The notes beneath the pieces are model-generated. The model saw nothing but the letters and a program-made list of their open reading frames with translations, did not search any database and was not told where the DNA came from. The position numbers were made by a program, and so were the translations under genes. From a virus (taxonomy: Duplodnaviria; Caudoviricetes), in IMG/VR virus record IMGVR_UViG_3300012816_000001, positions 1 to 44,508 of that record: 44,508 nucleotides of DNA; one strand, written 5' to 3'. Of this stretch, positions 1,182-44,414 are shown piece by piece. Each line of letters opens with the position of its first letter. Positions within the stretch are counted from its first letter, which is position 1.

Positions 1182-1255
1182 TGGAGCGGGTGAAGGGAAT
1201 CGAACCCTCGTATGAAGCTTGGGAAGCTGCCGTTCTACCATTGAACTACACCCGC
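1182..1255 (-). tRNA. tRNA-Gly (anticodon CCC), CCA encoded
   Basis: GCGGGTGTAGTTCAATGGTAGAACGGCAGCTTCCCAAGCTTCATACGAGGGTTCGATTCCCTTCACCCGCTCCA folds as a cloverleaf with TTCGA T-loop. One C-U mismatch in the anticodon stem. Confidence 0.97.
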
Positions 1256-2774: not shown

Positions 2775-2998
2775 CCCGAGTTGCGTGCAGGCTTGAGGTC
2801 TGACACGGGCAGGCTTCGGCCCCAGTCCTCCAGCTCTTCCACCAGCCAGGCGCTACGGCCTGCGGACAGCTTGCGCGGCTTGGGGGCCAAGCCCTTGGAT
2901 GCCATCTTTTCTAGCTGAGTGGACGAAAGTGATAGGAAGGCAGCAGCGGCCTCACGGTCCAAGTACAAGGGCTTTATGGTGACTTTGGCGCTGGTCAT
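2729..2998 (-). CDS. AlpA-like excisionase / recombination directionality factor
   Basis: MTSAKVTIKPLYLDREAAAAFLSLS...PKPRKLSAGRSAWLVEELEDW; last gene of the leftward operon; overlaps the int 3' end convergently. Confidence 0.85.
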   Translation of the reverse strand: MTSAKVTIKPLYLDREAAAAFLSLSSTQLEKMASKGLAPKPRKLSAGRSAWLVEELEDWGRSLPVSDLKPARNSGYGRAGAPDDASDSK

Positions 2999-3282
2999 GA
3001 AGCACCTTCTTGCTTGCGGGCTGCGATCAACCGATCTAGACCCGTTGGCTGGTGGTCGGGAGTGTTGATGGGGCCCACGTCCCACACGCTTTCGCACAGT
3101 TGCTGGGTGTGCGGGTGCTTGACGGCGTGCATTGCTGTCGCTTCGGGGCTGTGGTTAATGGCGACGTCTGAAAGGCGGCCAAAAGCTTCCTCCAGCCCGG
3201 TGCTGCACCCTGCGTCGGCGAAGTTGTCGATGTTTGGCTCGCCGGGGAAGGCGGGGAGGAGGGTGAGGGCGTTGCGTTTCAT
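2995..3282 (-). pseudogene. N-terminal remnant of a C5 DNA cytosine methyltransferase
   Basis: IDNFADAGCSTGLEEAFGR..DVAINHSPEA.AMHA..HPHT..LCESVWDV matches phage Dcm-like N-termini. Motif I is degenerate and the ORF ends before the catalytic PC/PDC motif. Confidence 0.8.
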
Positions 3283-4043
3283 GCGGCCTCCCCTTGGGGG
3301 TGATAGGCTTTACCTATTTCGGAGGGGCTATGAAAAATGTTGAAAGCGTTGGCTGGGGGGAGCTTGTTGCACAGAGTGTTGGGGTTTTCTGCGTAGTTAC
3401 TTGTCTGCTGGCTTTTTTCCCAGGCTGGGAGTTTGTAGGGAAAATATTTGCCGAAAAAGATGCCCCTGCTTGGGTTCAGGCAATTGGCTCGATAGCGGCC
3501 ATTCTTGTTGCGGTTGGTGTTGCTAGTTGGCAGTCCAGAGAGACGGCGGCGAAAGAGGAGAGGGCTGAGGCTCAAAAAATCGCGAGCGAAAGAGAATTCG
3601 CTGCTTATCTTTTGAATACTTTTTGTGGGACATTGTTTGCAGTCGTAAGTAAATTTAAGACCACACAAATTATCTACGCCTGGGATCTGCGATTGATGAG
3701 TGTCTTGTTGAGTGAAGAGTTGAGCAATGTAAAAAATATGCCTGTCTTGGCAATCTCTGCTGAATCGAGAAGAGCATTTTTCGGATTCAAACTGATAGCT
3801 ATTCAGTTCATCGAGGCAATTGAATTTGCTGAGCGCTCGGCTTCTCACATTCAAGGCCAAGGTATGGTTGTTGAAGAAACAGCGAAGTCGGTTTTGCAAA
3901 GTCTTATTGTGGATAAACATCCACAATTGGACCTGCTGCATGAAATACTTAAATCTGACAAGCATAAAGATGGTCATATTTAGCAACGTAAGTTCTGCTT
4001 TCGGGACATAGCTGCAAATCAAATAGGGAGTGCAATTTTTCAT
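3279..4043 (-). CDS. Operon-strand ORF (254 aa) spanning the 3330-3983 gene in antisense
   Basis: Starts at a TAATG overlap with the upstream gene and ends at an ATGA overlap with the downstream gene. The protein itself looks like an antisense translation. Confidence 0.4.
   Translation of the reverse strand: MKNCTPYLICSYVPKAELTLLNMTIFMLVRFKYFMQQVQLWMFIHNKTLQNRLRCFFNNHTLALNVRSRALSKFNCLDELNSYQFESEKCSSRFSRDCQDRHIFYIAQLFTQQDTHQSQIPGVDNLCGLKFTYDCKQCPTKSIQKISSEFSFARDFLSLSPLLFRRRLSGLPTSNTNRNKNGRYRANCLNPSRGIFFGKYFPYKLPAWEKSQQTSNYAENPNTLCNKLPPANAFNIFHSPSEIGKAYHPQGEAA
3330..3983 (+). CDS. Low-GC membrane-anchored cargo (moron) protein
   Basis: GGAGG RBS; two hydrophobic N-terminal segments (incl. APAWVQAIGSIAAILVAVGVA); AT-richer than its flanks; antisense to the operon; TGnTAGGCT extended -10 at 3301-3309. 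Confidence 0.8.
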   Translation: MKNVESVGWGELVAQSVGVFCVVTCLLAFFPGWEFVGKIFAEKDAPAWVQAIGSIAAILVAVGVASWQSRETAAKEERAEAQKIASEREFAAYLLNTFCGTLFAVVSKFKTTQIIYAWDLRLMSVLLSEELSNVKNMPVLAISAESRRAFFGFKLIAIQFIEAIEFAERSASHIQGQGMVVEETAKSVLQSLIVDKHPQLDLLHEILKSDKHKDGHI

Positions 4044-4819
4044 TATTCGCACGTCTCCGCCTGCATCTTTCGCCGTGCTTTCATCATCAACGCGGTTCTC
4101 CAGATAGCTACCTTTTCCGCCAGGCCGGTACGGTCCAACTCGATGAGGCTGTCGAAAACCGACGCAGCGGTCAGCAGCTCGGCGGCGTTGAAGCCCATAC
4201 GGCCGGTGCGCTGGTGGTGCAGGGCGACGGCTTCGTAGGTATTGAGCTGGCCGGCAATGGCGGTCATGGCCTCGATGGTGAACTCGGTGCCGTCTTCGGC
4301 CAGCAGGTGGATCAGCTGTGAGTAGGTGAAGCCTGTTTCCATCCAGTCCCACAGGTCGGCGCGGTCAGCGGTGCCGGAAGTGACGCGGCCGATGAGGTCC
4401 CAGTGAATGAGCCGGGCATCCAGTTTTTGGTGAGGGGTGGTACTGGCGCGCCAGAATTTGGGCAGGTCCTTGGGCTGTGCCATGGCGGCTTGTATCGCCA
4501 TGGATTTCAGGTGTTGAGCGGTTCTCATGGCTGGGGTACCCACTTCACTGTGGCCGTCAGGGAAGTGCAGGCGGTTGCCCACGCGGCTGGGCAGGCGGTA
4601 GGCGGTAAAGCGGGCGTCGGTCAGCCCGGGGTTGCGGTCCAGCTCGGGGCAGCGGTAGTGCGGGCTTTTCAAGAACTCGCTGCGCTCGCGCGCTTCGCGG
4701 TCCACGCGCTCGGACTGGGCGCGGCGGCGGGTTGCGTTGGCGGCGCGGGTTGCGGCGCTTTTTTGAACTGGGGTTGGGTGGCGGGCCTCGTAACTGCCTG
4801 GTTCTGGGGCACAGCTCAT
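4043..4819 (-). CDS. Hypothetical phage early protein (possibly two fused genes)
   Basis: ATGA-coupled to the HD gene; MSCAPEPG...; internal ATGA at about 4525-4528 (MRTAQH...). Confidence 0.65.
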   Translation of the reverse strand: MSCAPEPGSYEARHPTPVQKSAATRAANATRRRAQSERVDREARERSEFLKSPHYRCPELDRNPGLTDARFTAYRLPSRVGNRLHFPDGHSEVGTPAMRTAQHLKSMAIQAAMAQPKDLPKFWRASTTPHQKLDARLIHWDLIGRVTSGTADRADLWDWMETGFTYSQLIHLLAEDGTEFTIEAMTAIAGQLNTYEAVALHHQRTGRMGFNAAELLTAASVFDSLIELDRTGLAEKVAIWRTALMMKARRKMQAETCE

Positions 4820-5454
4820 GCCAACACCTCGGCACTCGCGCCGCACTGCGCAGTCAAAGTCTGGTACCGCTCCACAAATGCGTCCCGGTGGTGCCGCCAG
4901 CTCATGGCCACGCGCACGGGGCTGTTCAGGTCCACGGCCTCCACGGGGCGCACCTCGGCGCCTGGGGTGTCCAGGATGGGCCAGGGGGCGTTGATGGCGG
5001 GGTCGTAGCGGGTGAGGTCGCGGCGCTCGGTGGCCAGGGCAATCAGGTCGGCGCGTTTGATGAAGTCGCGGTAGCCGGTGTAGGCGGCCTGCAGGCCGTA
5101 GTGCTTTCGCATCATCAGGGCCAGCGGGTTCTCCAGCGACAGCCAGGCGGTGCCCAGCTCCCATTTGATGGGACTGGCAACGTCGCCGCACATGCATTCG
5201 TGGGCGTCGTGCATGAGGCCCGCAAGCTGTGCGATGGGTGGCAGGCCCATGTCTTGCAGGATGTCGCTCACAAACATACTGTGCTCAGCAACGCTTTCGG
5301 GTCGGATCGTGTGGCCGGTGAAGCGGTTGATCAGAGCCAAGCTGTGGGCGATGACCTCGATGGTGGGCATGCTGCCCAGCATTGCGGCGGGGCCGCTGAT
5401 GGGTTGGTCGGCGCCGTGGGCGGTGACGAGCCAGTGGGAGGTGGTTGCAGTCAT
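4816..5454 (-). CDS. HD-domain phosphohydrolase (YfbR-like 5'-deoxynucleotidase)
   Basis: IAHSLA..NRF.GH, SVAEHS, LMHDAHE, GD..SPIK and AD..ALATE.RDL motifs. Confidence 0.88.
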   Translation of the reverse strand: MTATTSHWLVTAHGADQPISGPAAMLGSMPTIEVIAHSLALINRFTGHTIRPESVAEHSMFVSDILQDMGLPPIAQLAGLMHDAHECMCGDVASPIKWELGTAWLSLENPLALMMRKHYGLQAAYTGYRDFIKRADLIALATERRDLTRYDPAINAPWPILDTPGAEVRPVEAVDLNSPVRVAMSWRHHRDAFVERYQTLTAQCGASAEVLA

Positions 5455-5458
5455 GGCT

Positions 5459-5638
5459 TCACTTCACGTTGCTGAAATCGGCCTTCATCACCACCTTGAT
5501 GGGGATGCCGAAGTCTTGGGCGGCGATCTTTTCCAGCGCGGAACAGATAGCCTCGTAGTGGGCTGTGGTGGGCTGGTTTGTCTTGACCAGCGCCTGGGTT
5601 GCCTCGGCCAGTGCACGGCGGTCTGGTGCGCTGCTCAT
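5459..5638 (-). CDS. Small hypothetical protein (59 aa, below track cutoff)
   Basis: MSSAPDRRALAEATQALVKT...ADFSNVK; ATGA-coupled; fills the operon gap. Confidence 0.65.
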   Translation of the reverse strand: MSSAPDRRALAEATQALVKTNQPTTAHYEAICSALEKIAAQDFGIPIKVVMKADFSNVK

Positions 5639-5859
5639 GTCGTTGCGCCTGCGCTTGGGGTGGTTGCCTTGGCCTTGGGCAGCGCCAGCAGGTACACGGC
5701 CTTGAAGTGCATCCCGGCCTCGCTGGCGAAGGGGTAGGGGCAGGAGTCGTTGAGGCTCTTGCCTTGCTGGGCGGCCTCGGTGGCGCGCTTTTCAATGGTG
5801 GCTTTGCTGACGATCATGTGACCCAGGCGGCTGTTGTAGACGGTGAGTTCTTGGCTCAT
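5635..5859 (-). CDS. Hypothetical protein (74 aa)
   Basis: MSQELTVYNSRLGHMIVSK...SCPYPF; operon position and codon usage. Confidence 0.65.
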   Translation of the reverse strand: MSQELTVYNSRLGHMIVSKATIEKRATEAAQQGKSLNDSCPYPFASEAGMHFKAVYLLALPKAKATTPSAGATT

Positions 5860-5902
5860 GTGGAATCCGTCCCGGTGGTGTATTGACAGGCGGCAGTTGG
5901 GC

Positions 5903-6250
5903 TCAGCCGTTGCCACGGTCAGCGGCTTCGCGAGCCAGGGCGGCATACGCGGCAGCGGCCTCCATGTCGCTGGCATTTGGCGCGAGCCCGTTGCGAGCGG
6001 TGGCGGCGGCGCGGGCCATGTGCACGGTCTGCAAAAAGGCCCAGCCCTGGCGCTCGGTCAGGGTGGTTTTTTCCATGGCGTTAAACGCTGTGACGGCGGC
6101 GGTCATGCTGCGGCCGTTGGGGTTGTCCAGCGCTTCGTGGTCGGTGATGGACTGGGCAGCGCTGCGCAGTGTTTCTTGAGCGCAGAGCACGGCAGGCGCT
6201 GCAGCCTGGGGTTGTGCAACGGCTTTGAGAGTCTTGATGGGGTTGGCCAT
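5903..6250 (-). CDS. Hypothetical phage protein (DUF6378-like)
   Basis: RSM.A.V.AFNA....LTE.QGW.F motif; AGGA RBS. Confidence 0.6.
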   Translation of the reverse strand: MANPIKTLKAVAQPQAAAPAVLCAQETLRSAAQSITDHEALDNPNGRSMTAAVTAFNAMEKTTLTERQGWAFLQTVHMARAAATARNGLAPNASDMEAAAAYAALAREAADRGNG

Positions 6251-6268
6251 GGTGGGTCCTTGGGATGG

Positions 6269-6634
6269 TCAGGCGGTGGCCGCCTCGGTGTTTGTGGGGG
6301 CGCTGGCGCGGCGGGGCAGCAGCTGCATGCGCACGACGTGGCCGCGCAGCTCGGGCAGGGGTGGGAAGGTCTGCGGGCCGGGGTGGGCGCGCAGGCGCTC
6401 CAGTTCCACGTGCAGCGGGGCGCCTGGGGTCAGGCTCGGCCGGTGGGCATTCCAGAAGGCTTGCGCCTCTGGTCCCACCCACTGCACGCGGTAGCCTTCC
6501 TTGATCTCTTTGCCGGTGCGGGGGTGGCGGCCTTGGTTGTCCAGCAGCACAAGCTCCAGGCGGAAGTTGCCGGCGCTGTCTTTGTCTGCGACAGGGTTCT
6601 GCCTGCCGATGAAGAGGGTGCCCTTGGCTTGCAT
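6269..6634 (-). CDS. Hypothetical protein, possibly OB-fold/SSB-like
   Basis: AGGAG RBS; beta-rich pattern (G.L.IGR...V.W.G..A......L.PG..L.VE). Confidence 0.6.
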   Translation of the reverse strand: MQAKGTLFIGRQNPVADKDSAGNFRLELVLLDNQGRHPRTGKEIKEGYRVQWVGPEAQAFWNAHRPSLTPGAPLHVELERLRAHPGPQTFPPLPELRGHVVRMQLLPRRASAPTNTEAATA

Positions 6635-6675
6635 GGTTGGCTCCTGCGTGCTGCTGAATTGATAGCTGCTGGCGC

Positions 6676-7536
6676 TTACGCCTTGCCGATCAGCACCGTG
6701 TAGCCGCTCTTTTCGCGGACGGTGTTGACGTACCCGGTGAAGGCGTCCTCCACGGCGCGCTCGGGGCGCTCCAGCTCGTACCAGAACTTCACGGTGCCGC
6801 TGTGGATGCGGTACTTGAGGCGGGCGGTGAGCTTGTAGCCCTCGCCGTTCTTGAAAATGCGCAGGCCCAGGGCGAAGGTCTGCGGGATCTTCAGCGTGCC
6901 ATCGGCGCCCGCTGTGGCGTTGATGACTTCGTTGTAGGTCAGCTGGGTCTGGCCGTCTTGCAGGCGGCGGGCGCTGCTGAAGTTGATGCCGTTGGTGGCC
7001 TGGATGGTGGTGGCCACGGTCAGCAGGTTCTGCGCCTGGTCACCCTGGATGTCTGCCAGGTTGTCTTCGATGAACTCGGCAAACTCGGTCTGGCCCATGC
7101 TGACCGTGTTCTTGTCGAGCCACTTCTTGAACTCGGGCGTGTACACGGCGGCAAAGGTGGCGCGGTGGTCGCGCCAGCCGGGCGCCAGGGTGCTGCGCTG
7201 GTCGTTGAAGACGGCGGTGATGGTGCGGGCGTCGGGGTCGGCGTAGATGTAGCCGCGCTCTTGCGCCACTTGGTCGGCGCAGTAGGCCAGCAGGCTATTC
7301 ACATCGCCCAGGCTGACGGTGCCCTGCGCGCGGCGGCGGTGGGGCTGGGCGGCCTCGATGGTGGCGGTGATGTCCTTGAGCTGGTAACCCTCGGGCAGCG
7401 TGATCATGGTGGCGCCGTCGATAGTGCGGGGCGCCAGGGCGCCGGCCACGTTGGCGGCCAGCTTCTCGGCAATGCTCAGCGCCTCGGGGGCGTGGTCGGC
7501 ACTGATCGCGCCGAGGGTGTTGGTGGTTTCTTCCAT
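6676..7536 (-). CDS. DUF2303 (YfdQ-like) family protein
   Basis: A.FND...GWRDHRA...EFKKW...Q.EFAEFIEDN..DI...IP..F...IF..G...ARL.YR. Confidence 0.88.
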   Translation of the reverse strand: MEETTNTLGAISADHAPEALSIAEKLAANVAGALAPRTIDGATMITLPEGYQLKDITATIEAAQPHRRRAQGTVSLGDVNSLLAYCADQVAQERGYIYADPDARTITAVFNDQRSTLAPGWRDHRATFAAVYTPEFKKWLDKNTVSMGQTEFAEFIEDNLADIQGDQAQNLLTVATTIQATNGINFSSARRLQDGQTQLTYNEVINATAGADGTLKIPQTFALGLRIFKNGEGYKLTARLKYRIHSGTVKFWYELERPERAVEDAFTGYVNTVREKSGYTVLIGKA

Positions 7537-7541
7537 GGTGC

Positions 7542-7892
7542 TCAGGCCTCCTTGAATTGAGCGGGTGGGGTGGTGGTGGTGACTTCACGCAGCTCCAGCG
7601 ATTGCTGGCGGGGGTGGTTGCGAGTGGTTTCACCGTCTTCGGTGAGGTAGAAGAAGTCCGTGGGTGTCTCGGGCTTGGGCAGGGCCAGCGTCCGGTCCAC
7701 GGTGATGTTCACGCGGTCGATGTCGCCGCCGCTGGTGTTGCGCACGGCGGGCACGACCTTGATGGTCAGCGTCAACTTGCCGGAGCGGCCGGTGACCTGC
7801 ACGGTGCGTAGCAGTTCGGCCAGGTCGCTGGTCAGCGCGGCGTGTGTGCTGCCCTCGTTGATCTCGTTCAGGAGGTGGGCAAAGGATTTCAT
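7542..7892 (-). CDS. Conserved phage protein (YfdP-like partner of DUF2303)
   Basis: L..V..TG..GKLTLTIKV.P...FY.T.DG...R..PRQ..L; AGGA RBS; usual synteny. Confidence 0.8.
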   Translation of the reverse strand: MKSFAHLLNEINEGSTHAALTSDLAELLRTVQVTGRSGKLTLTIKVVPAVRNTSGGDIDRVNITVDRTLALPKPETPTDFFYLTEDGETTRNHPRQQSLELREVTTTTPPAQFKEA

Positions 7893-7938
7893 GGCGTCCT
7901 TGTGTGTTATGAAATTGATAGCTACTCGCGCAAGCGCA

Positions 7939-8187
7939 TCAAGCGCTAGCGCACGAAATCAGCACAAAAGCGAGGGCGAGCGCGATGCCTGCAACCCACA
8001 GCGCAAAGCCCAGCAGCTCGGTGCGGGTGGCGGGTGCCTCGTCGGTCACCTCGCAGGCCTGCGGCGTGGGGCAGGTCTTGTGGCCCTGGCTGCAGCGGTT
8101 GGCGTTGCAGGCGCGGTAGCTGGGCGTGGTGTGGGCGCCGGTGCGCGGGCGGGCGCGGCGGTCGGTGGTGGGGTGGGTGGTGGTCAT
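7939..8187 (-). CDS. Small Cys-rich protein with C-terminal TM helix
   Basis: C...C.QG...CPTPQAC then a hydrophobic tail; ATGA-coupled. Confidence 0.65.
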   Translation of the reverse strand: MTTTHPTTDRRARPRTGAHTTPSYRACNANRCSQGHKTCPTPQACEVTDEAPATRTELLGFALWVAGIALALAFVLISCASA

Positions 8188-8336
8188 TTCAGCCATCCCA
8201 TCAGCACGGCAAAGGCGACGCCCAGAAACAGGCCGATCACCAGGCCTTGCCACCAGCCCACGGTCCAGGCGGCGTCGGTGTTCTGGCTGCGCAGGGTGGG
8301 CAGCGCGGTGGGCTTGCGCATTTGCGGCTGGCTCAT
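8184..8336 (-). CDS. Small single-TM protein (50 aa)
   Basis: MSQPQMRKP...GWWQGLVIGLFLGVAFAVLMGWLK; GGAGG RBS; ATGA-coupled. Confidence 0.65.
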   Translation of the reverse strand: MSQPQMRKPTALPTLRSQNTDAAWTVGWWQGLVIGLFLGVAFAVLMGWLK

Positions 8337-8482
8337 GCAATCCTCCGCGCGGTGGATGCGGGTAGGCCCATGCCGTGGGCTTCGGCGATGGCGTGGCACT
8401 CGCTGGTGGCCCACACGCGGTGCTCGGTCTTGCCCGCACGCACGATGTAGAGGCGGACGTGGCGCAGAGTTGGGGTGTTCAT
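8333..8482 (-). CDS. Small hypothetical protein (49 aa)
   Basis: MNTPTLRHVRLYIVRAG...ATSECHAI; ATGA overlaps at both ends. Confidence 0.6.
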   Translation of the reverse strand: MNTPTLRHVRLYIVRAGKTEHRVWATSECHAIAEAHGMGLPASTARRIA

Positions 8483-9111
8483 GCCGCACCGCCTTGCTGC
8501 TGACCTACGATGGCGTTTTCACCGGGAGTAACGCTATGGGTATTGATTCGGGTCTGATACAGGCAATCACTCTCGCCATTGCTGTGCTGGGAGCCGTGCT
8601 TGGCGTCTTGAATGCCTGGCGCAACTGGGTGCACGACAGGTTGCGGGTTCGGGTGGATGTTTCGACGGCCATTGGCGTCGGTGGTGCGCCTGCCATCAGC
8701 ATCAATATCCGCAACCTGAGTCGGTTCGATGTGACCATCACCCACATCGGGCTTCACTGCATCGGGCGCCAGCGCCATATGCAGTTGTGGCAGCCCTTGT
8801 TTACCCGTGGCGAGGCCTTGCCGGTACGCCTGGAATCGAGGGCATCCTGCACAGTCGTTCAAGCTCTTGCCGCAATGCCAGAAGAGGGCTGGCTGACAAT
8901 CGAGTGCGTATATGTCACCACTGCGTGCGGCAACGAGGTCACGGGTGGCAAAGCCCTTTTCCGCAAACACGGGTCCACCATTGCAAAAAGCGCTGCGGAA
9001 GCCCGCTTGCAGGCGGCTGAGCAAAGTTGGTAGTGGCGGGAGCACTGTGCGCAGCAGCACGGCGCCAGTGCTGAAACGGCTGCTTGCGGTTGTTTCGGTG
9101 GTGGTCTGCAT
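8479..9111 (-). CDS. First ORF of the PL operon (210 aa), spanning the 8536-9033 gene in antisense
   Basis: Strong GGAGGA RBS right after PL; its stop overlaps the next start (ATGA). Confidence 0.5.
   Translation of the reverse strand: MQTTTETTASSRFSTGAVLLRTVLPPLPTLLSRLQAGFRSAFCNGGPVFAEKGFATRDLVAARSGDIYALDCQPALFWHCGKSLNDCAGCPRFQAYRQGLATGKQGLPQLHMALAPDAVKPDVGDGHIEPTQVADIDADGRRTTDANGRRNIHPNPQPVVHPVAPGIQDAKHGSQHSNGESDCLYQTRINTHSVTPGENAIVGQQQGGAA
8536..9033 (+). CDS. Cargo protein with N-terminal TM helix and beta-rich domain
   Basis: GGGAG RBS; MGIDSGLIQAITLAIAVLGAVLGVLNAW...I.IRNLS...VTI..IG; TACGAT -10-like at 8506-8511. Confidence 0.8.
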   Translation: MGIDSGLIQAITLAIAVLGAVLGVLNAWRNWVHDRLRVRVDVSTAIGVGGAPAISINIRNLSRFDVTITHIGLHCIGRQRHMQLWQPLFTRGEALPVRLESRASCTVVQALAAMPEEGWLTIECVYVTTACGNEVTGGKALFRKHGSTIAKSAAEARLQAAEQSW

Positions 9112-9146
9112 CGTTCCTCCAGGGCGCCGGGGTGGCGCGTGGAGGG

Positions 9147-9209
9147 ATTATGTTCCACATATGGAATGTATGCAATGCCATAAATGGATTTATGGGACCT
9201 AATTTGGAA
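9147..9209 (-). promoter_or_regulatory. PL promoter with three operator-like sites
   Basis: TTGCAT-17 bp-CATAAT on the minus strand; 14-bp sites TTCCACATATGGAA (9153-9166), TGCCATAAATGGAT (9176-9189), GACCTAATTTGGAA (9196-9209). Confidence 0.8.
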
Positions 9210-9210
9210 C

Positions 9211-9238
9211 AAAAAAGCCCGCACGAGGCGGGCTTTTT
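9211..9238. terminator. Bidirectional intrinsic terminator ending the cI operon
   Basis: AAAAAAGCCCGC-ACGAG-GCGGGCTTTTT. Confidence 0.9.
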
Positions 9239-9255
9239 GCTGTCAATGGGGTGGC

Positions 9256-10080
9256 TCAGGCTGCGGCGGCTGCCCAGGTGGCAATGTTGTGTGCCAGCTC
9301 TTCGCTGTTGTCAGACTGGTAAAGGTGAAGGGAGCTGGCCCGGTACATCACGTTGTCAATGACATCGTCGCGCTGTTGCGCCAGCTTGCTCGGCTCTTGA
9401 GTAGGGCGCAGCAGAAAAATGGCCTGATGAGCGCGCTGGCGGTACAGGGCAGCGCATTGCAGGTCTAGCACGCTGTCCATCAAGTGCGCCTTGAGAGATG
9501 TGGGGCTGTAGTCTGCACTGCGCACGGCGCCCACTCCGTTGCGAGGTTGCAGTGGTACCGTGACAGGCCGTGGGCCTTGCGGAGTATTTACCAGCGTGAC
9601 CGGGGTGTTTGCCACCACCTCCCCCAGCATGGGCAGCAGCTTGCGCAGCTCGCCCAGCACCAGCGTGGTTGCGGCTGCGTCGTCCAGTTGCAGCCGGTTT
9701 GACGCCACACGCTGCGGTAGCGCAACCGTCACCTGCTCCTGAAACGTCATGCGCAGAATGTCTTCCGCCTTGGTGTGGTAGTAGGGCAGAGGGGTGTCAA
9801 AAATGATCTGTGGGCTGGGCGATGGCAAGCCTTCGGCAGCGCAGGCGGCTGCAATTTTGGCCAGGTTGACCACCGATGCGGCGCCGCCGCCGTAAAGGCA
9901 TTCCAGCCGCCCGGGCTCTTCGATGCAGCGCACATGGCGCTGGCCGGTGGCCTCTTGCACACACACACCAACGTTGATTCGTTCGCCCGTAAACGGGTCC
10001 GGCTCGCAGCGAATGACGAACACCTGCCCAGCTTGCGCGGCGGCAGCAAGGTCAAGTGGGGGTGCGGTCAAAAATTCCAT
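9256..10080 (-). CDS. DUF3037-like protein
   Basis: VIRCEPDPFTGERINVGV N-terminal motif; directly downstream of a HipA-like kinase. Confidence 0.75.
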   Translation of the reverse strand: MEFLTAPPLDLAAAAQAGQVFVIRCEPDPFTGERINVGVCVQEATGQRHVRCIEEPGRLECLYGGGAASVVNLAKIAAACAAEGLPSPSPQIIFDTPLPYYHTKAEDILRMTFQEQVTVALPQRVASNRLQLDDAAATTLVLGELRKLLPMLGEVVANTPVTLVNTPQGPRPVTVPLQPRNGVGAVRSADYSPTSLKAHLMDSVLDLQCAALYRQRAHQAIFLLRPTQEPSKLAQQRDDVIDNVMYRASSLHLYQSDNSEELAHNIATWAAAAA

Positions 10081-10085
10081 GGTCT

Positions 10086-10874
10086 CTACGGCAGCAACTG
10101 TAGCCGGTCCCGATACCAGCGCGCAACATCCAGGCTGCGCCACCATACTGCGTCAAGGGCCAGGCATGCCTCGCGGCTGCCTGCTACTGCTGCCCGCAGC
10201 GGCTGCCATTGGTTGTACAGGGTCTCAATGGCCACGTCAGCAGCTGCGGCCAGCGCGCCGCGTTGTGGTGGGGTGAGTGTTTTGATGGACTGGCAAAAAT
10301 CTACCAGCTTTGCCGGGGCCCAAGCAGTGGGGTGCAGCAAGCTATCTTCCAGCCAGTCGCAGCCGCCCAAAATGTCGCTGTGGTCGATGGCGACAAAGCT
10401 GCGGGGGCCGGTGAACACAAGGTTACCCATGTTTCGATCACCATTGATGCACAGCTGGTCGGCCGCAGCCAAGGTGGAAAAAGCGTGGCAGGCCAGCAGC
10501 CGCTCTGCCAGCTTCTTCATTTGGTCGGCACTCGCTGGGTGGTAAATCTCTTTGGGGGTGCCTTCGCTGCGGGGCATGGGCTCAAAGCTTACGAACGACC
10601 AGGCCATGCGTGTGTCGCCTGGTATGGGTGCCCGCAGCACTGCAGCGGGTGGCTGTGGCACTGTCAGCGCGGACATGAACACATACCCAAACCACTCGTT
10701 AAACAGCGAGCGTGGGGCGTTGGCAGGGAACTGCTTGACGTAGGCGCGGTGCGGGATGCCGCTGGCATTGCGCACCAGGGCCAAATGGGTCAACGCGCGG
10801 ATTCCGCCTTGTTGCACCTTGATGGTGCGAAGGTAGTGTTTGTCTGGCAACACTACCGGTACCGTGATGCTCAA
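10086..10874 (-). CDS. HipA-like (PI3/4K-fold) kinase
   Basis: AYVK, LFNEW, D.LC.NGDRNMGNL and AIDHS motifs; TTG start overlaps the cI stop (TTGA). Confidence 0.85.
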   Translation of the reverse strand: MSITVPVVLPDKHYLRTIKVQQGGIRALTHLALVRNASGIPHRAYVKQFPANAPRSLFNEWFGYVFMSALTVPQPPAAVLRAPIPGDTRMAWSFVSFEPMPRSEGTPKEIYHPASADQMKKLAERLLACHAFSTLAAADQLCINGDRNMGNLVFTGPRSFVAIDHSDILGGCDWLEDSLLHPTAWAPAKLVDFCQSIKTLTPPQRGALAAAADVAIETLYNQWQPLRAAVAGSREACLALDAVWWRSLDVARWYRDRLQLLP

Positions 10875-11338
10875 GTCTTGCCCCCTGGCGGTTGGCCCGT
10901 GGCGATGGCTGATGCGGTTGGTGCCCCGTGGCTGGCGCTGGCTCTGTTCAGGCTGTCATGCAGCCAGGAAATATCGCCATCGGTCAGCCTTCCTGCGGTT
11001 GCTTTTTGGCAGATCTCTTCTACGAAAGCGCGTGTGCGTGGGCTCAATGCTCGCCATTGTTCTTCTGCAATCACTGGCGGGCGTGGCTCTGGCATCCTGA
11101 GCGGCTGTCCCGCCTTCGCGCGCGCGGCGAGTTCCGGGTCAAGTAGGTCGCATGCGCGAAGTCGGAACGCCTCAGCTACCTCTTCAAGTTTGTCGATTTG
11201 GGCTGCAGCTTCGTTCAGTCGCATGCGTCGGACTGTCGTTTTGCCTACGCCCTGGCGTCCAGCAAACTTGTTTTCGTTGCCAAAGCCAGCATCAGCAAGG
11301 GCATTGAGATTTGCTGCAAGGACTTCGCGAACGTTCAT
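10871..11338 (-). CDS. cI: Repressor (XRE HTH) without S24 peptidase domain
   Basis: LAANLNAL...GVGKTTVRRM......QIDKLEEVAEAF HTH; divergent from cro; GGGAG RBS. Confidence 0.8.
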   Translation of the reverse strand: MNVREVLAANLNALADAGFGNENKFAGRQGVGKTTVRRMRLNEAAAQIDKLEEVAEAFRLRACDLLDPELAARAKAGQPLRMPEPRPPVIAEEQWRALSPRTRAFVEEICQKATAGRLTDGDISWLHDSLNRASASHGAPTASAIATGQPPGGKT

Positions 11339-11362
11339 GTTCGGAATCTCCCATGCCGAGAG

Positions 11363-11405
11363 GTGCAAATATGGATTTGATTGGATTCCGAATGTGGAAC
11401 ATAAT
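11363..11405 (+). promoter_or_regulatory. PR promoter with operator
   Basis: TTGATT(11377)-17 bp-CATAAT(11400). Operator TTCCGAATGTGGAA at 11386-11399. Shares ATTCCnnATGTGGAACATAATCC with PL. Confidence 0.8.
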
Positions 11406-11412
11406 CCAGACC

Positions 11413-11649
11413 ATGCGAAATGACCTCTACGCCTACGTCATGGCGAACCTCGATGCCCGGCGAATATCTCTGGCGCGGGTCTCCCGCGAGGCAGGTATTC
11501 CCTACGAGTCTTTGAAAAAGATCGCCCACCGACGCACGCCCAACCCGGGAGTGAAGCATGTGCAGGCGCTGGCGGACTACTTCGACGGCAGAAGTGCTGG
11601 CGTCGGAGTGGTTGAAGCTGCGCATCTCGACGTGGGGAGGGTGGCGTGA
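11413..11649 (+). CDS. cro: Cro-like HTH regulator
   Basis: VSREAGIPYESLKKIAHRRTPNPGVKHVQALADYF. Confidence 0.85.
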   Translation: MRNDLYAYVMANLDARRISLARVSREAGIPYESLKKIAHRRTPNPGVKHVQALADYFDGRSAGVGVVEAAHLDVGRVA

Positions 11650-12002
11650 TGGTGCGTTCCGTCGATATCTCCGAAGCGTGCGCCGATGAGCGGCCCGGCG
11701 GGCAGTGCATTCGGATTGTGGGCAATTCCGGCGCGTTGTGCGCAGACCTTGAGCTACTTGCCCAGGCGGCCAAGGGCTCGCTGCAGATCCGCCAGTTTCT
11801 TCTCGATTTTGTTGATGCCGGCGCGCAGTTCGTTGGCGTTGACCGTGAAGTCTTTGCGGCACCTGCTGCAGGTGAGCTTGGGGTTCAGTTTGAGCTTGCC
11901 GATGGGCTGCGCGGTCTTGTGGCTGCAGTGCGGGCAGGGCACGTCGATCAGTTCTTTGTCCAGCAGTCCAGTCATGGGCATCCCTCTCGAAAGATGGTTT
12001 GA
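11646..12002 (+). CDS. Operon-strand ORF (118 aa) spanning the Zn-finger gene in antisense
   Basis: GTGATG overlap with the cro stop; GGGAGGG RBS. Confidence 0.4.
   Translation: MMVRSVDISEACADERPGGQCIRIVGNSGALCADLELLAQAAKGSLQIRQFLLDFVDAGAQFVGVDREVFAAPAAGELGVQFELADGLRGLVAAVRAGHVDQFFVQQSSHGHPSRKMV
11754..11975 (-). CDS. Small Zn-ribbon + coiled-coil cargo protein (73 aa)
   Basis: CPHC...CSRC followed by an amphipathic helix; GAGGG RBS; TTGGCG-17-GACAAT promoter upstream. Confidence 0.75.
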   Translation of the reverse strand: MTGLLDKELIDVPCPHCSHKTAQPIGKLKLNPKLTCSRCRKDFTVNANELRAGINKIEKKLADLQRALGRLGK

Positions 12003-12111
12003 AGTGAGAAGCACATTGTCTTTCGATTGCGGGTGCCCGCCAAACGTTGCTGCAGCGCTCGTATTTATTGCGCTGGGTGCTATCGATTTTGATCTGAAGT
12101 AGGGGATTCCA

Positions 12112-12549
12112 ATGTCCGCTGATCGTGTTGCTGGTGCTGGCAGTTTGCCCATCGACCCTTACTGCTGGCGCCACTTGCCTATGAACTTGGGGCTGTGCGT
12201 CGCGTCCTGGGCTGCGTTGCTGGCATGGCTGTTGAGTGGCAGTGAGGGCGCGGGCAATCTGTTCGCGGTGTGGACCTGGTTTATCGCTTTGGTGTTTACC
12301 GTTGTGGTGAGCATGAGGCCCAAGCGCCTGACCCGAAGCGCCCCGGTACTGCTGCGTTGGGTATTCCGCGCAAGCGGCATCAGTCAGGTGAGTATGTTGG
12401 CCTGGTTTGGTTGCTGGTGGGTGTTTGCTCCGGCAGTGTGGGCGTTCGTGATGGCTGCTATTGAGCGCAGCTATGTGGATCGGCGTATTGCAGAGCAGGA
12501 GGTGGCCCAGGCTGCTACTGAAACCGTAGCGAGGGTTGCGCATGAGTGA
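12112..12549 (+). CDS. Multi-pass membrane protein
   Basis: AGGGG RBS; about four Trp-rich hydrophobic segments. Confidence 0.65.
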   Translation: MSADRVAGAGSLPIDPYCWRHLPMNLGLCVASWAALLAWLLSGSEGAGNLFAVWTWFIALVFTVVVSMRPKRLTRSAPVLLRWVFRASGISQVSMLAWFGCWWVFAPAVWAFVMAAIERSYVDRRIAEQEVAQAATETVARVAHE

Positions 12550-12653
12550 TGCCAACACCATCTTTGCTGATGTGACAGAGATGGACCTCGCGGCGGATGC
12601 CGTGAGTGTCCGTGTGATGCACGGCTGCTCAGCATGGATGGTTTTGCGTGATG

Positions 12654-12935
12654 TCAGCGAGGTGTCTGACGTCGCAGTGCAATTACTTCCTGGATTTTTT
12701 CCAGGTAATGCACCCATAAATGTTCGCGTTGCAGTTCCGGTGATAGTTGCTGCATGGCTGCGATCACTCGGGTGTCGTAGCGCTCCTCCAGCACCTCCAG
12801 AACATCCAGATCCAGTTGTGCCAGTAGGGCCTTCATCAGGGCCTCGGTTGCCATCGTCCGGTTCAGTAGCGCTATGCGCTCTTGATTGAGTGCTTGTATG
12901 TCTGCGCGTGCTGATTCCAGGGTGTATTCGTTCAT
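12654..12935 (-). CDS. Antisense cargo protein, helical (93 aa)
   Basis: MNEYTLESARADIQALNQER...; protein-like helical composition; GGGA RBS. Confidence 0.6.
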   Translation of the reverse strand: MNEYTLESARADIQALNQERIALLNRTMATEALMKALLAQLDLDVLEVLEERYDTRVIAAMQQLSPELQREHLWVHYLEKIQEVIALRRQTPR

Positions 12936-13016
12936 GGGTGTCCCATTCGAAAGTGGCTGTGGTGTGGATATCACATTCTCTTTTGTTTGTGGACGCCCGC
13001 CCCATGCAGGCCGGCA

Positions 13017-13265
13017 TCAGGTCAGCACCCGCTGCTGCAGCTGTGCCAGTGCTGCCAGCGTCCCAGGTGCCGTGCTTTGCGTTGCTGCCATGCGCTGGCG
13101 TGCCAGGTCGCCCCATCTGCGTAGGGCCTCCGCTGAAAAGGTGGGCTCGCACTCCAGCACCAGCACCATCTGCTGCAGCAGTAGCTCCACGGCGGCCAGG
13201 CGCTGGTCGGTGGTGGGTGGTGCGGGTGTTTCGTTCGTTTGCGTGTCTGCCATTGGTGTGGGCAT
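13017..13265 (-). CDS. Antisense hypothetical protein (82 aa)
   Basis: RLAAVELLLQQMVLVLECEP.F..EAL.RW; AGGA RBS. Confidence 0.6.
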   Translation of the reverse strand: MPTPMADTQTNETPAPPTTDQRLAAVELLLQQMVLVLECEPTFSAEALRRWGDLARQRMAATQSTAPGTLAALAQLQQRVLT

Positions 13266-13456
13266 GTGTGGATCCTGTGGTTGCCGTTGGGGTGGCCTGG
13301 GGTTGGTCAATGGTTCTGTCACTCGCACCTCTGTTCAAGCCGCGCAGCGGCCGGGGTGTCTTCTCGCTCCAAATGATCAGGGTCGCAGCGCGCGGGAAGG
13401 TGCGCTGTGTTCCGCTGTGCGGGGTGGTGCGGGTGCTTTTTCTTGGGAGTGATGGC

Positions 13457-13969
13457 ATGGGGATAACTGTCTCAATTCCGGCCGCGCTTGCCTACGGCGC
13501 AAATGAGCCGTTACCGGCCACTCAGATGACGCCTGATGTGATGGTGGCAGTGGCCAACATGCTCAAGGGGCGTATTGGTCATGTGGCTGATCGGCTGGGA
13601 TGGTCGGAGAGCACGCTTCAAAAGAAGATCACCGGCGGCGGGAAGCATGTGTTTTCGGTGCGTGATCTGCAGCTGGTGCAGCACGTGTTGGGTGATGTGT
13701 CGGCCACGCAGTTTCTGGCGGCGGCCGAGGGCTATGTGTGTGTATCGGTGCAATCCGAGGGTGTCACCAGCGCGGCCGAGGGGCTGGCACGCGTGATGCA
13801 AGGCTTGGGCGATCTGGCTGCAGCGGTGGTTGAGGAAACGGCAGGTGGCCGAGCGGCGTCGCCCAATGGCAACCGGCGAGTGCAACACCATGTGAGCGAG
13901 TTGCTGGGCCGGGTGAATGCTCTGGGCGCATTCGTGTCGGCTCAGGTGCCTGTGCGGGGTGAATCGTGA
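13457..13969 (+). CDS. CII-family phage regulator
   Basis: VADRLGWSESTLQKKI HTH followed by a helical C-terminus as in 186/CP76-type CII; GGGAG RBS. Confidence 0.7.
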   Translation: MGITVSIPAALAYGANEPLPATQMTPDVMVAVANMLKGRIGHVADRLGWSESTLQKKITGGGKHVFSVRDLQLVQHVLGDVSATQFLAAAEGYVCVSVQSEGVTSAAEGLARVMQGLGDLAAAVVEETAGGRAASPNGNRRVQHHVSELLGRVNALGAFVSAQVPVRGES

Positions 13970-41072: not shown

Positions 41073-42083
41073 CTAATTTTTCTTAATTGTTTTGTAGAAG
41101 TGGTAACCTTGTTCATTGGTTAACCCGGCGACGCCATGATCTTGTGCAAATTTCTCGTTTTCAATATATATATTACATCCATCGTCGAAGGTATTAATGA
41201 CGATGTTTCCAGCTTGGTTTGATGTCAGTATTTCAAGGTTGCGCCGACTCCATTGAGAGTAGTCAATGTACTTTGATGGAGAACACCCGAGTATGGTTAT
41301 TTTGGGTTTAAGAAAATCGAGAAAGGAATAATCCCTGTCAGAGTGTCTGCCATGATGTGGCGCGAGTAATATTGCACAATTATTCTTTAAATCTGGGTTG
41401 GTTTTTATGACAAATTCCCACGATTTGTCGTGTGCGTCACCTCCAAATATAATATTTCCGGCGGCTGAGCAGTATTGAATCACATAAGATGCTTCATTAA
41501 TATCATCGTTAACATCTGGGTCACACAGAAGTTCTTCATTTGGTGCAAGGATGTACAGGCCATCATGACCTCCATCTTTGCCTTGTTCATTCGCGTAGGC
41601 GAATTTTGCGCCAGCGAGTTTTTTTAATGTGGTTACGCCATCAACTTTTGCGTTGATTAACTGCTGATATTTAATCCAGTCTTCTTCTTTATAGCGATAA
41701 AAATTCTTGAAATCAGGTGCTTCGCGTCTTGCGCCTGTGTCCCAAAAATTTTGAAATCCAATCTCATTGTGTAGTGCGTTTAATCCGTCCATGTGATCCA
41801 TGTCAGGATGCGTCACAATCATTCTAAATATTTTCCCAATTCCGAAGGTTTTTATATAGTTGATTGGATTCGATGGGCGTTCGCACATCCTATAGTTGCC
41901 TTTGATTCCTTGGGCCTCTTTAAAGATATTTAGTAGGCCGGTTGCCCTTGCTTCCATCGCCATGGCATTTTGTCGAACCTCTAAATTGCCGCCGCACATA
42001 TCAATCATGGTCGAGCGGCCAGAGTTGTGCTGAATAATCGAGCAGTCTCCGGGGGATACATTGAGAAGATGAATTGTCGCCAT
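41073..42083 (-). CDS. Stand-alone ComEC/Rec2-type metallo-beta-lactamase-fold hydrolase
   Basis: LNV..GDC.II, ID, THPDMDHMDG, N.AS.V, GGDA and APHHG motifs; markedly AT-rich. Confidence 0.9.
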   Translation of the reverse strand: MATIHLLNVSPGDCSIIQHNSGRSTMIDMCGGNLEVRQNAMAMEARATGLLNIFKEAQGIKGNYRMCERPSNPINYIKTFGIGKIFRMIVTHPDMDHMDGLNALHNEIGFQNFWDTGARREAPDFKNFYRYKEEDWIKYQQLINAKVDGVTTLKKLAGAKFAYANEQGKDGGHDGLYILAPNEELLCDPDVNDDINEASYVIQYCSAAGNIIFGGDAHDKSWEFVIKTNPDLKNNCAILLAPHHGRHSDRDYSFLDFLKPKITILGCSPSKYIDYSQWSRRNLEILTSNQAGNIVINTFDDGCNIYIENEKFAQDHGVAGLTNEQGYHFYKTIKKN

Positions 42084-42556
42084 TATTTTTCAGTGTTTTT
42101 GGGTGCGCTATCTGCCGAGGATCGTGATTTTTCGATGCCCCATATTGCTTGGGCAACACTTTCAATCTTTGCTACAAATTTATCCACATTTAAGCCTGCG
42201 ACAAAAGCTAGGGCAAAAAAACCTATTTCTGAAGAATCTGTAGTTCTACTTGAATCGAGAACCAGTAGGCCGGCTTTCAAAAAGAGATAGCTAACGCCAC
42301 CACTGATGAGGCTGGCAAGTGGTCTTAAGAAATACCATGCATGCCAATCTTTATTCCAATTGTTGTGAACGCAGCGATTGATATACACTGCTCTTAAGCA
42401 GTAAAGACAGCCTCCAATGAGCCCAATGAGGCTGCACTGGGTAATTATTTTTAGTGGCTCAAAATCTTTGGCGAAATAATTTAAAGCTATGCATGCTAAA
42501 AGGTAGGTGCTTCCAGTTATAAGTGTTAATAAGTATCCGGAAATAATAACTATCAT
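42083..42556 (-). CDS. Four-TM membrane protein
   Basis: G.IGG, WYFLRPL.S...G and FALAFVAG; its stop overlaps the hydrolase start (TAATG); AT-rich. Confidence 0.85.
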   Translation of the reverse strand: MIVIISGYLLTLITGSTYLLACIALNYFAKDFEPLKIITQCSLIGLIGGCLYCLRAVYINRCVHNNWNKDWHAWYFLRPLASLISGGVSYLFLKAGLLVLDSSRTTDSSEIGFFALAFVAGLNVDKFVAKIESVAQAIWGIEKSRSSADSAPKNTEK

Positions 42557-42651: not shown

Positions 42652-43950
42652 TCACGCCCTCGCCACCGGCACATCCTCCCACCGCGTCGTGTACTGCGGC
42701 GTGCGCCTCTCCTGCTTCATCCCCCAGTCCTTGCCCTTGTTGGTGCCCCCCGTGGCACCTGAATGCACGGTGCCCTTGCCATAGCGCTGGTTGAGGGTGT
42801 CCAGCGCCACCATCAACTTGGTGCGGTCGCGGTGGTCTTCTTCCTCCAGATCCAGTTCGCCCTGCAGCACGCTGCCAGGCACCAGGTCCAGCAGCATCAC
42901 CCCGGCCTTGGCCATCTTGTAGCCGGGCTCATAGATGCGCCGCATGCCTGCAGCAGCAGCCCAAACCAGCTTGCCGGTGTCGGCAGTGGGGCGGCGTAGT
43001 GGCACCACGATGCTGCGGTTGAACCGGGGCCCGGGTCGGAAAGGGGATGTGTGGCAGAACACCAGCAGCTGGCTGGCCAGGCTGCCTTGCTTGCGCAGCT
43101 TCTCGGCCGCGCGGCTGGCGAACTCGCTCACGGCCTCCACCAGCGGTGGCAGCTCTGTCACCGCGTGGCCGAATGATCGGGTGCAGGCAATCTCTTTCTT
43201 GGGTGTTGGTGCATCGTCTAGGTCAATGCACTGCATGCCCTGCAGTTCGCGCACGGTGCGCTCCAGCACCACGCTCCAGCGCCTGCGCACGGTGGCTGGG
43301 TCCAGCCGGGCCAGGTCCAGCACGGTGTGCACGCCACCTTCATGCAGCTGCGCTGCGATCTTGCGGCCCACGCCCCACACTTCCTCCACCAGCGTGGCCT
43401 GCAGCACGTCGTCCAGGTCCTGGGCGGGCAGGGCGGTCAGGTTGCACACCTGGGCCAGCTCGGCGGGGTAGCTGCCGGGTTTGCGCTCGGCCGTCTTGGC
43501 GATGTAGTTGGCCAGCTTCGCCAGCGTCTTGGTGTGCCCGATCCCGATGCCGCAAGGGATGCCCACCCACTGGTTGATCCGGTCGCGTATGGCCTGGCTG
43601 CGTTTGGTCAGGTCGCCGCGTACGCCCTGCAAGCCGATGAACGACTCATCGATGCTGTAAACCTCCTGCGTGGGGCCCAGGCCCGCCGCCAGGCTCATCA
43701 TGCGGTCGCTCATGTCGCCGTACAGGGTGAAGTTGGCACTCAGCGCCACCAGGCCGTGGGTTTCCTCCATGTGCCGGATCTGGAACCACGGCGCCCCCAT
43801 CTTGATGCCCAGTGCCTTGGCCTCATTGCTGCGGGCAATGGCGCAGCCGTCGTTGTTGCTCAGCACCACCACGGGGCGGCCGTTGAGGCTGGGGCGGAAC
43901 ACCCGCTCGCAGCTCACGTAGAAGTTGTTGCCGTCCACCAGCGCGTACAT
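42652..43950 (-). CDS. umuC: Y-family DNA polymerase V subunit
   Basis: [27 protein letters not shown] and W.MKQE..TP.YTT.W. Confidence 0.97.
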
Positions 43951-43967
43951 GCTGGCCTCCCATCTGC

Positions 43968-44414
43968 TCAGGTGGGGAACAGCTTCACGCACCCGCTCAC
44001 CACACCCCACACCTCAATGGTCTGGCTGTCGCGGGGGATGATGTCGGGATAGGTTGGGTTGGCCGCGCGCAGCTTGATGCGGCCGGCACGCTGGTGCAAA
44101 AACTTCACCGTGCATTCGCCGTCCACAATGGCCACAACGATGCTGTTGTGCTTGGGCTTGATCGCCCGGTCCACCGCAATGATGCTGCCGTCCTCAATGC
44201 CAGCGTCGCGCATCGAGTCACCCCGCACGCGCCAGAAGTAGGTGGCCTGGGGGTGCTTCACCAAAAGCTGCATGATGTCCAGCCGCTCCACCACAAAGTC
44301 ATCGGCAGGCGATGGAAACCCCGCACGCACGCTTACCCCGCACAGGGGCAAGGCCAGCGACTGCGCCGCCGCGTCGTACGGCACGGGTAGCGGGGAATTC
44401 CAAAGACTGTACAT
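43968..44414 (-). CDS. umuD: UmuD (S24 peptidase)
   Basis: AGFPSPA.D cleavage site, GDSM and TVK. Confidence 0.95.

Follow-up and report, generated by a model that had tools for sequence, protein, structure and literature searches.

Three backwards genes lie beneath open frames of the early operons

We analyzed IMG/VR record IMGVR_UViG_3300012816_000001, a temperate phage genome of 44,508 nt (the window, meaning the whole of this stretch), in which three genes lie backwards with respect to the early operon around them, each inside a longer open reading frame (ORF) of the operon strand. We refer to the backwards genes as cargos and to the frames over them as outer ORFs or bridges. Cases 1 and 2 belong to the minus-strand left early operon, and case 3 follows the cro-like gene. 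The pairs and their flanks (lengths in amino acids, aa) are:

3330..3983, plus strand: cargo 1, 217 aa, with hydrophobic N-terminal helices, a PAWVQAIGS motif and then a helical domain
3279..4043, minus strand: bridge ORF 1, 254 aa; it starts by TAATG on the stop upstream and ends by ATGA on the start that follows
4043..4528, minus strand: early gene upstream of bridge 1; its TAA overlaps the bridge 1 start
2995..3282, minus strand: N-terminal stub of a DNA methyltransferase, 95 aa (601–956 aa in relatives)
8536..9033, plus strand: cargo 2, 165 aa, with one N-terminal helix and a beta-sandwich
8479..9111, minus strand: bridge ORF 2, 210 aa, the first ORF past the predicted promoter PL; GGAGGA ribosome site, ATGA end on gene 8333–8482
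11754..11975, minus strand: cargo 3, 73 aa, a YnfU-family zinc-binding protein
11646..12002, plus strand: outer ORF 3, 117–118 aa, starting on the cro stop
12004..12102, plus strand: short hand-off ORF, with a GTG one base past the outer ORF 3 stop, ending 9 nt before gene 12112

The original prediction had singled out these pairs for their exact register, for translation signals at the ends of the outer ORFs, and for the lack of TTA, CTA and TCA, the codons that an opposite in-register frame would read as stops. Its coordinates were exact; we found offset 0 in 3/3 pairs and zero TTA, CTA or TCA codons in all three cargos, and the junctions read as it had written them: TAATG (4043) and GCATGA (3279–3282) for bridge ORF 1, GGAGGA-ACG-ATG (9111) and GCATGA (8479–8482) for bridge ORF 2, and GTGATG (11646–11651) for outer ORF 3. 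It had also described cargo 1 as AT-rich with about 20 Leu and 17 Ser, and we counted 20 and 17 at a third-position GC content (GC3) of 0.41; cargo 2 has 16 Leu and 9 Ser (GC3 0.68), and cargo 3, with 11 Leu and 2 Ser (GC3 0.84), is without any TTR or TCN codon. Homologous proteins were found for the inner ORFs (19 for cargo 1, query counted; 42 for cargo 2; 14 for cargo 3), and the outer ORFs gave zero Pfam or PHROG matches.

Such frames could be ordinary shadow ORFs produced by GC-rich codon usage. An open in-register antisense frame is present by chance in 13/36 native window genes of at least 100 aa and in 50–59% of genes with GC3 >0.8, and this explanation can account for case 3 on its own. 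The chance of an open frame was 3.5e-4, 0.04 and 0.67 for cases 1, 2 and 3 among GC3-matched genes, and 6e-7, 0.006 and 0.38 from each gene's own third-base usage; in the empirical control bin for cargo 1, 1/17 control genes was open. Because so many native genes are open by chance, cases 2 and 3 alone prove little, in agreement with the caveat made when the pairs were first noticed, and, taken singly, just case 1 beats chance. Against the shadow explanation, two AT-rich window genes outside the early operons carry 13 TTA, CTA or TCA codons each.

The three-codon ban follows genomic context

A motif scan for cargo 1 yielded 71 viral loci (from the best 80 of 85 confirmed stretches) with 69 distinct genes; this family DNA set leaves out the closest cargo 1 homologs, P0002–P0005. 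TTA, CTA and TCA were absent from 59/69 of these viral genes, compared with an expectation of 1.65 (binomial) or 8.75 (empirical), and the latter is conservative because further bridged cargo may be hidden among the controls, which were 1,065 genes called at these loci. Only these three codons were missing: other A-ending codons stood at or above control levels, with GAA and AAA slightly below. Clusters were wholly open in 51/60 cases at 60% identity, 47/55 at 50% and 36/44 at 40%.

A genome collection contributed 41 loci and 40 family genes, 32 of them new, and the new genes, of which only 9/32 were open, served as an internal control. Across the 99 pooled genes, counted from the motif onward and with two short genes (L190 and L202) dropped, the frame was open in 47/49 genes with both neighbors on the opposite strand, 19/35 with one such neighbor, 2/9 with none and 2/6 at a contig edge. 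The original prediction had proposed setting the absence of these codons against homologs elsewhere, and the comparison came out in its favor, with 47/49 opposite-flanked genes open versus 21/44 others (Fisher 8e-8, among kin that are not independent). Family members outside opposite-strand operons carry TTA, CTA or TCA at about 2 per 100. We conclude that the ban tracks genomic context, not family. The gene caller blurs these context classes, because it models composition in a simple way from amino-acid frequencies, misplaces some starts and at times takes a shadow for a gene. In the cargo 2 family, 9/13 loci were open as called, and in the other four, one or two stops fell close to the called start or beneath a start that is itself uncertain; L175 and L177 of this family are also open when counted from a later start.

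Open frames are coupled to the lytic genes on either side

Fully open family genes were coupled to the upstream gene, by an outer start that overlaps its stop, in 50/68 cases, to the downstream gene, by an outer end on its start, in 49/68 and at both ends in 36/68, compared with 20/220, 28/220 and 2/220 for chance-open native genes. Among the 50 upstream-coupled outer starts, 41 lay within 21 nt of the cargo stop and 35 had a ribosome-site word. The GC3-matched counts and this coupling refute the shadow-ORF explanation for the cargo 1 family, and we regard it as scarcely credible overall, while case 3 taken singly can still be explained in this way. At five loci (L116, L117, L129, L133 and L139), the outer frame overruns the cargo start by 441–750 nt, apparently across a second gene.

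A complementary search was blind to the cargo, its motif being taken from the final part of a single upstream lytic gene, and returned 18 loci; the family set had already included 6/18 of the contigs, and one cargo is common to L223, L224 and L230. In 18/18, an ORF starts on the upstream stop and spans a backwards gene. The 16 complete outer ORFs are 185–253 aa long, their overlap with the following gene being 1 or 4 nt in 16/16, and the remaining two run off the contig. Although a W-x-Q-A/T motif is common to most of the cargos, the one in L237 is a DUF4145 protein and the one in L234 a short membrane protein. The joint empirical chance that the 10 distinct new slot cargos are all open is about 8e-10, if they are independent. 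The expectation that relatives would hold different cargo in the same flanks with the frame still open was borne out, the frame being open over varied cargo at all 18 loci, and equivalent slots with stops were not found there.

Slots of other kinds recur as well. In L002, the post-cro slot carries another cargo, of a cysteine-pair kind, and its cassette ends as in the window; the equivalent outer ORF there is followed by the same hand-off ORF start. The site just before a DNA methyltransferase-like gene, as in case 1, is a recurring cargo slot (L095, L105, L109, L111, L130, L150, L188 and L209); direct scans with cargo 1 and with the methyltransferase stub found no viral loci. In phiE125 (L240 5986–6579), the ORF annotated as gp36 is a bridge, and the W-V-Q-A family gene that it covers on the opposite strand lacks annotation.

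The frames could be relics, if the cargo arose in or landed in an older gene and openness was inherited rather than maintained. The lack of an empty slot among the 18 loci is consistent with this, as is the W-x-Q-A motif in most slot cargos, which implies some common ancestry. However, silent sites are saturated and yet stops are absent, family members that are not opposite-flanked do carry the three codons, and unrelated cargo follows the same rule; we therefore find a relic origin very improbable.

Upstream of the cargo starts, a −10-like hexamer clusters at 29–36 nt (mean score 3.88 versus 2.51 ± 0.19 in shuffled sequence; 62 regions). Because this −10-like box sits inside the outer tail, promoter and gene probably move as one cassette. 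A promoter scan of the window found no consensus promoter for the cargos; the predicted candidates are:

3301..3309, plus strand: candidate extended −10 box (TG-A-TAGGCT) for cargo 1, in the bridge 1 tail; the family-wide scan chose another hexamer for cargo 1
8506..8511, plus strand: candidate −10 box TACGAT for cargo 2, 30 nt 5′ of its start, a spacing that fits the 29–36 nt cluster of the cargo 1 family

A predicted cargo promoter inside the bridge would also suit the explanation that outer translation mainly shuts the cargo off or protects the lytic mRNA, with coupled ribosomes helping the lytic polymerase in collisions and stripping cargo RNA before double-strand cleavage. Antisense operon architecture is reported to turn defense genes off upon induction (PMC11087260). 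This explanation alone does not account for the exactness of the overlap (1 or 4 nt) with the following start, which we saw in 16/16 slot loci and 49/68 family genes, and we consider it unlikely.

The outer peptide drifts in the cargo 1 and cargo 2 families

An outer ORF might instead encode a functional protein, for example a self-immunity factor that neutralizes its cargo during lytic growth. The original prediction had not considered this, and there are published precedents: a nested lytic-strand ORF, anti-TerI2, encodes an immunity protein against the overlapping opposite-strand TerI (10.1101/2025.02.27.640495), and in phage Fc02 exclusion activity comes from both strands (PMC9936078). In 12 independent close pairs, changes that are silent in the cargo and alter the outer peptide occurred at 0.145 per site versus 0.133 for changes silent in both, a class of just 17 changes, which weakens the comparison as support for a drifting peptide. 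The NN/NS ratio in these pairs was 0.76, versus 0.78 for shadows of flanking native genes. Cargo divergence was below that of the flanks in all change classes, which fits recent cassette exchange. At 40–60% cargo identity, outer first positions were saturated (0.97–0.98) and outer identity was about 24%; outer-peptide identity in cargo 2 pairs was only 0.22–0.34; and in one slot the outer ORFs were of unrelated sequence, with a PHROG match in 0/10. In addition, any in-register backwards gene dictates most of the outer peptide. For the families of cargos 1 and 2, we conclude that what is conserved is the cargo protein, the outer frame being simply kept open, and a functional outer protein strikes us as rather unlikely.

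Case 3 is the pair for which this explanation fares best. In 5/6 pairs, drawn from four sequences and so not independent, its antisense identity approached or exceeded the control 95th percentile, and some likeness among these four sequences reaches beyond the overlap. The gene caller favored outer ORF 3 over cargo 3, and outer ORF 3 had no match in GenBank phages. Outer ORF 3 is a bridge, possibly also a real protein, and it may be turning functional.

More backwards genes are crossed between cro and cII

The interval from the cro-like to the cII-like gene holds further backwards genes, including cargo 4, which was absent from the original list:

11413..11649, plus strand: cro-like gene
12654..12935, minus strand: cargo 4, 93 aa, a likely backwards gene by its gene-call score, with a weak DUF7653 match only
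12542..12889, plus strand: open frame over cargo 4, out of register, starting within the last 8 nt of gene 12112–12549
13017..13265, minus strand: cargo 5, 82 aa; homologs occupy the same slot in relatives
12890..13969, plus strand: open frame crossing cargo 5, beginning right past the preceding stop and continuing, without a change of frame, into the cII-like gene
from about 13457, plus strand: cII-like gene

The cargo 5 homologs have 43–58% identity (L001, L002, L004 and L016). Since cargos 4 and 5 are crossed by out-of-register frames, register is not required. A coupled ORF chain leads from cro to cII in the window phage and 3/5 relatives, compared with 0/38 random antisense stretches, an imperfect null because stretches of about 2 kb stand against intervals of 1–2.2 kb that include native genes. 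In L001 (3909–6098), a continuous coupled ORF chain crosses four backwards genes between cro and cII.

Bridging is a tendency rather than a law

A number of observations weigh against the idea that frames are kept open for ribosomes to pass. The gene for phi1026b gp50, a family member in the left operon of a cultured phage, is interrupted by 7, 2 and 7 stops in the operon strand's three frames; crossing it needs a gap >30 nt, and no single frame bridges it. L100 and L208 are opposite-flanked yet have 8 and 6 stops, and L086 and L187, although their starts are coupled, each have a single stop in mid-gene. Outside the family, lone backwards calls, a set that takes in operon ends and mis-calls, were open in 4/16 (1/13 at GC3 <0.8), and the coupled cro-to-cII chain was present in only 4/6 phages. 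In five close pairs, silent divergence was below controls (0.49 versus 0.76; 0.20 versus 0.40). The C-over-G bias expected of Rho sites was weak (0.058 versus 0.019 native; −0.14 in outer ORF 3). An empty slot was seen in 0/18 slot-test loci, so that the insertion step itself was unobserved, and RNA runs matched ≤0.10 of the sequence words, in unstranded contigs from which strand and level are unreadable. Early antitermination may also operate in these phages.

The original prediction held that cargo enters early operons only if the lytic strand remains translatable. Openness is indeed selected, context-dependent and doubly coupled, but "only if" is too strong given phi1026b gp50 and the 2/49 opposite-flanked genes with many stops. 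Bridging is a strong tendency of certain slots and cassettes. Bridges may be unneeded where nothing lies downstream. Left-operon-end cargo near excisionase or integrase in L015 (17854–18666, minus strand) and L013 (17245–18525, minus strand) has many antisense stops.

Relation to known systems

In TerI/anti-TerI2 of Listeria prophage phi10403S, as here, a lysogen-expressed opposite-strand gene in the early lytic module is overlapped by a lytic-operon ORF; in that pair the ORF of the lytic operon encodes a conserved TerI-binding immunity protein, whereas the cargo 1 and 2 outer peptides drift, and deletion of anti-TerI2 did not reduce virion yield in one test (10.1101/2025.02.27.640495). The window pairs thus have a lytic-strand ORF over an opposite-strand early-module gene, as in the TerI type, but lack the conserved outer protein in the cargo 1 and 2 families. 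Noncontiguous operons, including staphylococcal Tha/Ith, have an opposite-strand gene between co-directional operon genes, a layout that the window shares (PMC11087260, PMC11034616). They are described for transcription, with no mention in the passages cited of an open doubly coupled frame or of codon avoidance, and the antisense gene of Tha/Ith is located in the lysogeny operon, unlike the window cargos.

For Pseudomonas phage Fc02, olg1/gene 10 is a case in which the gene after the cro-like ner overlaps an opposite-strand lysogen-expressed gene, which is where case 3 lies; exclusion activity belongs to both products, and the account concerns a single locus and makes no claim of ribosome passage (PMC9936078). 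Tab of Pseudomonas phage JBD26 is a minus-strand prophage defense gene with its own promoter inside a lytic operon, with a counter-gene coupled to the gene upstream; a separate anti-Tab protein is described and, in the passages cited, no frame spanning the cargo (PMC10884400). In satellite phage P4 (eta/kil), translation of eta, an ORF coupled to its upstream gene, keeps transcription from terminating and so allows downstream genes to be transcribed; the eta frame runs over regulatory RNA elements of its own strand and yields a real protein, whereas here exchangeable backwards protein genes are crossed (summarized in PMC10111431). The window shares with P4 an ORF coupled to its upstream gene, but no immunity RNA lies inside the frames, and a tRNA was the sole window match to Rfam at gathering score.

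Phage lambda offers one example of an unbridged gene. A backwards ORF in its PL operon, left unannotated in the record and presumably sieB, faces 9, 4 and 15 stops in the three operon-strand frames. With N antitermination, which is annotated in lambda, a bridge would not be needed; the unbridged ORF agrees with the idea that antitermination dispenses with bridges, without proving it.

The original prediction knew of no description of such a system. Antisense silencing has already been published for staphylococcal prophages (PMC11087260), and antisense lysogen genes in phage operons are known. In the open-access literature, with subscription papers largely outside this search, we found neither selection on openness alone nor any account of frames that avoid stops, are coupled at both ends, are free in sequence and lie over exchangeable cargo. 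The phenomenon is real, general and strongly non-random, and it would combine the noncontiguous-operon layout with translational read-through like that of P4 eta.

Cargo proteins and other features of the window

Cargo 1 belongs to a large unnamed membrane-protein family of prophages whose named relatives are mostly proteobacterial, with a weak match to phrog_33632 and an all-helical predicted structure (predicted local distance difference test score, pLDDT, 87.8). It had no Pfam, PADLOC or NCBIfam match and no PDB fold match at E ≤0.001; PADLOC gave weak matches in 3/67 family members. Cargo 1 and L090 had no match among GenBank phages, and cargo 1 likewise none in plasmids. The N-terminal helix of cargo 2 is likely a membrane anchor, and its model (pLDDT 95.6) gave generic sandwich matches only in the PDB (best TM 0.37). 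Cargo 3 passes the curated YnfU cut-off (NF038384, 38 bits versus a cut-off of 36). A protein atlas placed the cargos in unnamed clusters only.

The remaining landmarks of the temperate phage are:

1464–2774: integrase
10871–11338: repressor-like gene
9145..9182, minus strand: predicted PL promoter/operator, TTGCAT-17-CATAAT, a near-copy of PR
11370..11407, plus strand: predicted PR promoter/operator, TTGATT-17-CATAAT

The predicted PL and PR are 38-nt near-copies, 79% alike. The cro start codon (11413) is 7 nt past the PR −10 box, and cro mRNA may be leaderless. Long plus-strand genes lie 3′ of the cII-like gene. A boxA-like heptamer occurs 10 times in the window in no telling pattern. Downstream of the repressor and in its operon are two genes (9256–10874, minus strand), likely a pair expressed in the lysogen. 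One encodes 262 aa and has no named family match; by its motifs it resembles a HipA-type kinase. The other has a weak DUF3037 match. A two-way hairpin terminator at 9212–9238 closes the operon. Elsewhere, an AT-rich two-gene insert lies at 41073–42556 (minus strand), its larger product having weak metallo-beta-lactamase-fold (MBL) matches far under the cut-off, one of them to an anti-phage MBL model. UmuC- and UmuD-like translesion polymerase genes (42652–44414, minus strand) are at the end of the element, and a tRNA gene (1185–1255, minus strand) adjoins the integrase as a likely attachment site.

Discussion

We observed frames that stay open, openness that depends on context, and ends that are coupled on either side; in the cargo 1 and 2 families, the outer peptide showed no sign of selection on its amino acids. 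We consider it likely that these stop-free frames over backwards cargo, overlapping the flanking stop and start, are kept open so that ribosomes can cross and downstream lytic genes are expressed. Untranslated mRNA invites Rho, and overlapping stop–start signals hand on ribosomes. The cargo would be made in the lysogen from its own promoter within the bridge tail; after induction, ribosomes would re-initiate at the overlap, read the bridge and pass to the next gene, which would preserve translational coupling and shield 500–750 nt of mRNA from Rho. The frame may be open for coupling, for anti-polarity or for both; the strict downstream overlap points to coupling, and the strong start of case 2 right after PL, with no upstream gene, fits either. 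The methyltransferase stub after bridge 1 is coupled by ATGA to an excisionase-like gene (2729–2998), and because bridge 1 leads to it, the target protected in this phage may be excision. From position and precedent, a defense or exclusion role for the cargos would be our guess.

On balance, we favor a more general statement, that proteobacterial temperate phages carry product-free bridge ORFs over exchangeable promoter-plus-gene cassettes banned from TTA, CTA and TCA, with translation selected for passage alone. This would be a second way, besides antitermination, to tolerate operon inserts, and the ban would be a codon signature for lysogen-expressed defense cargo.

One immediate consequence is a correction to annotation, with phiE125 gp36 being a bridge and the family gene beneath it unannotated, and the three-codon ban with coupled ends could serve to mine cargo hotspots. 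The bridges show, in a clean natural form, how selection can keep a long frame open as the peptide that it encodes drifts, a point of interest for the dispute about antisense ORFs in bacteria and for the origin of new genes. For temperate phages, they suggest a testable rule for how lysogen genes are added within tightly coupled lytic operons with downstream expression kept.

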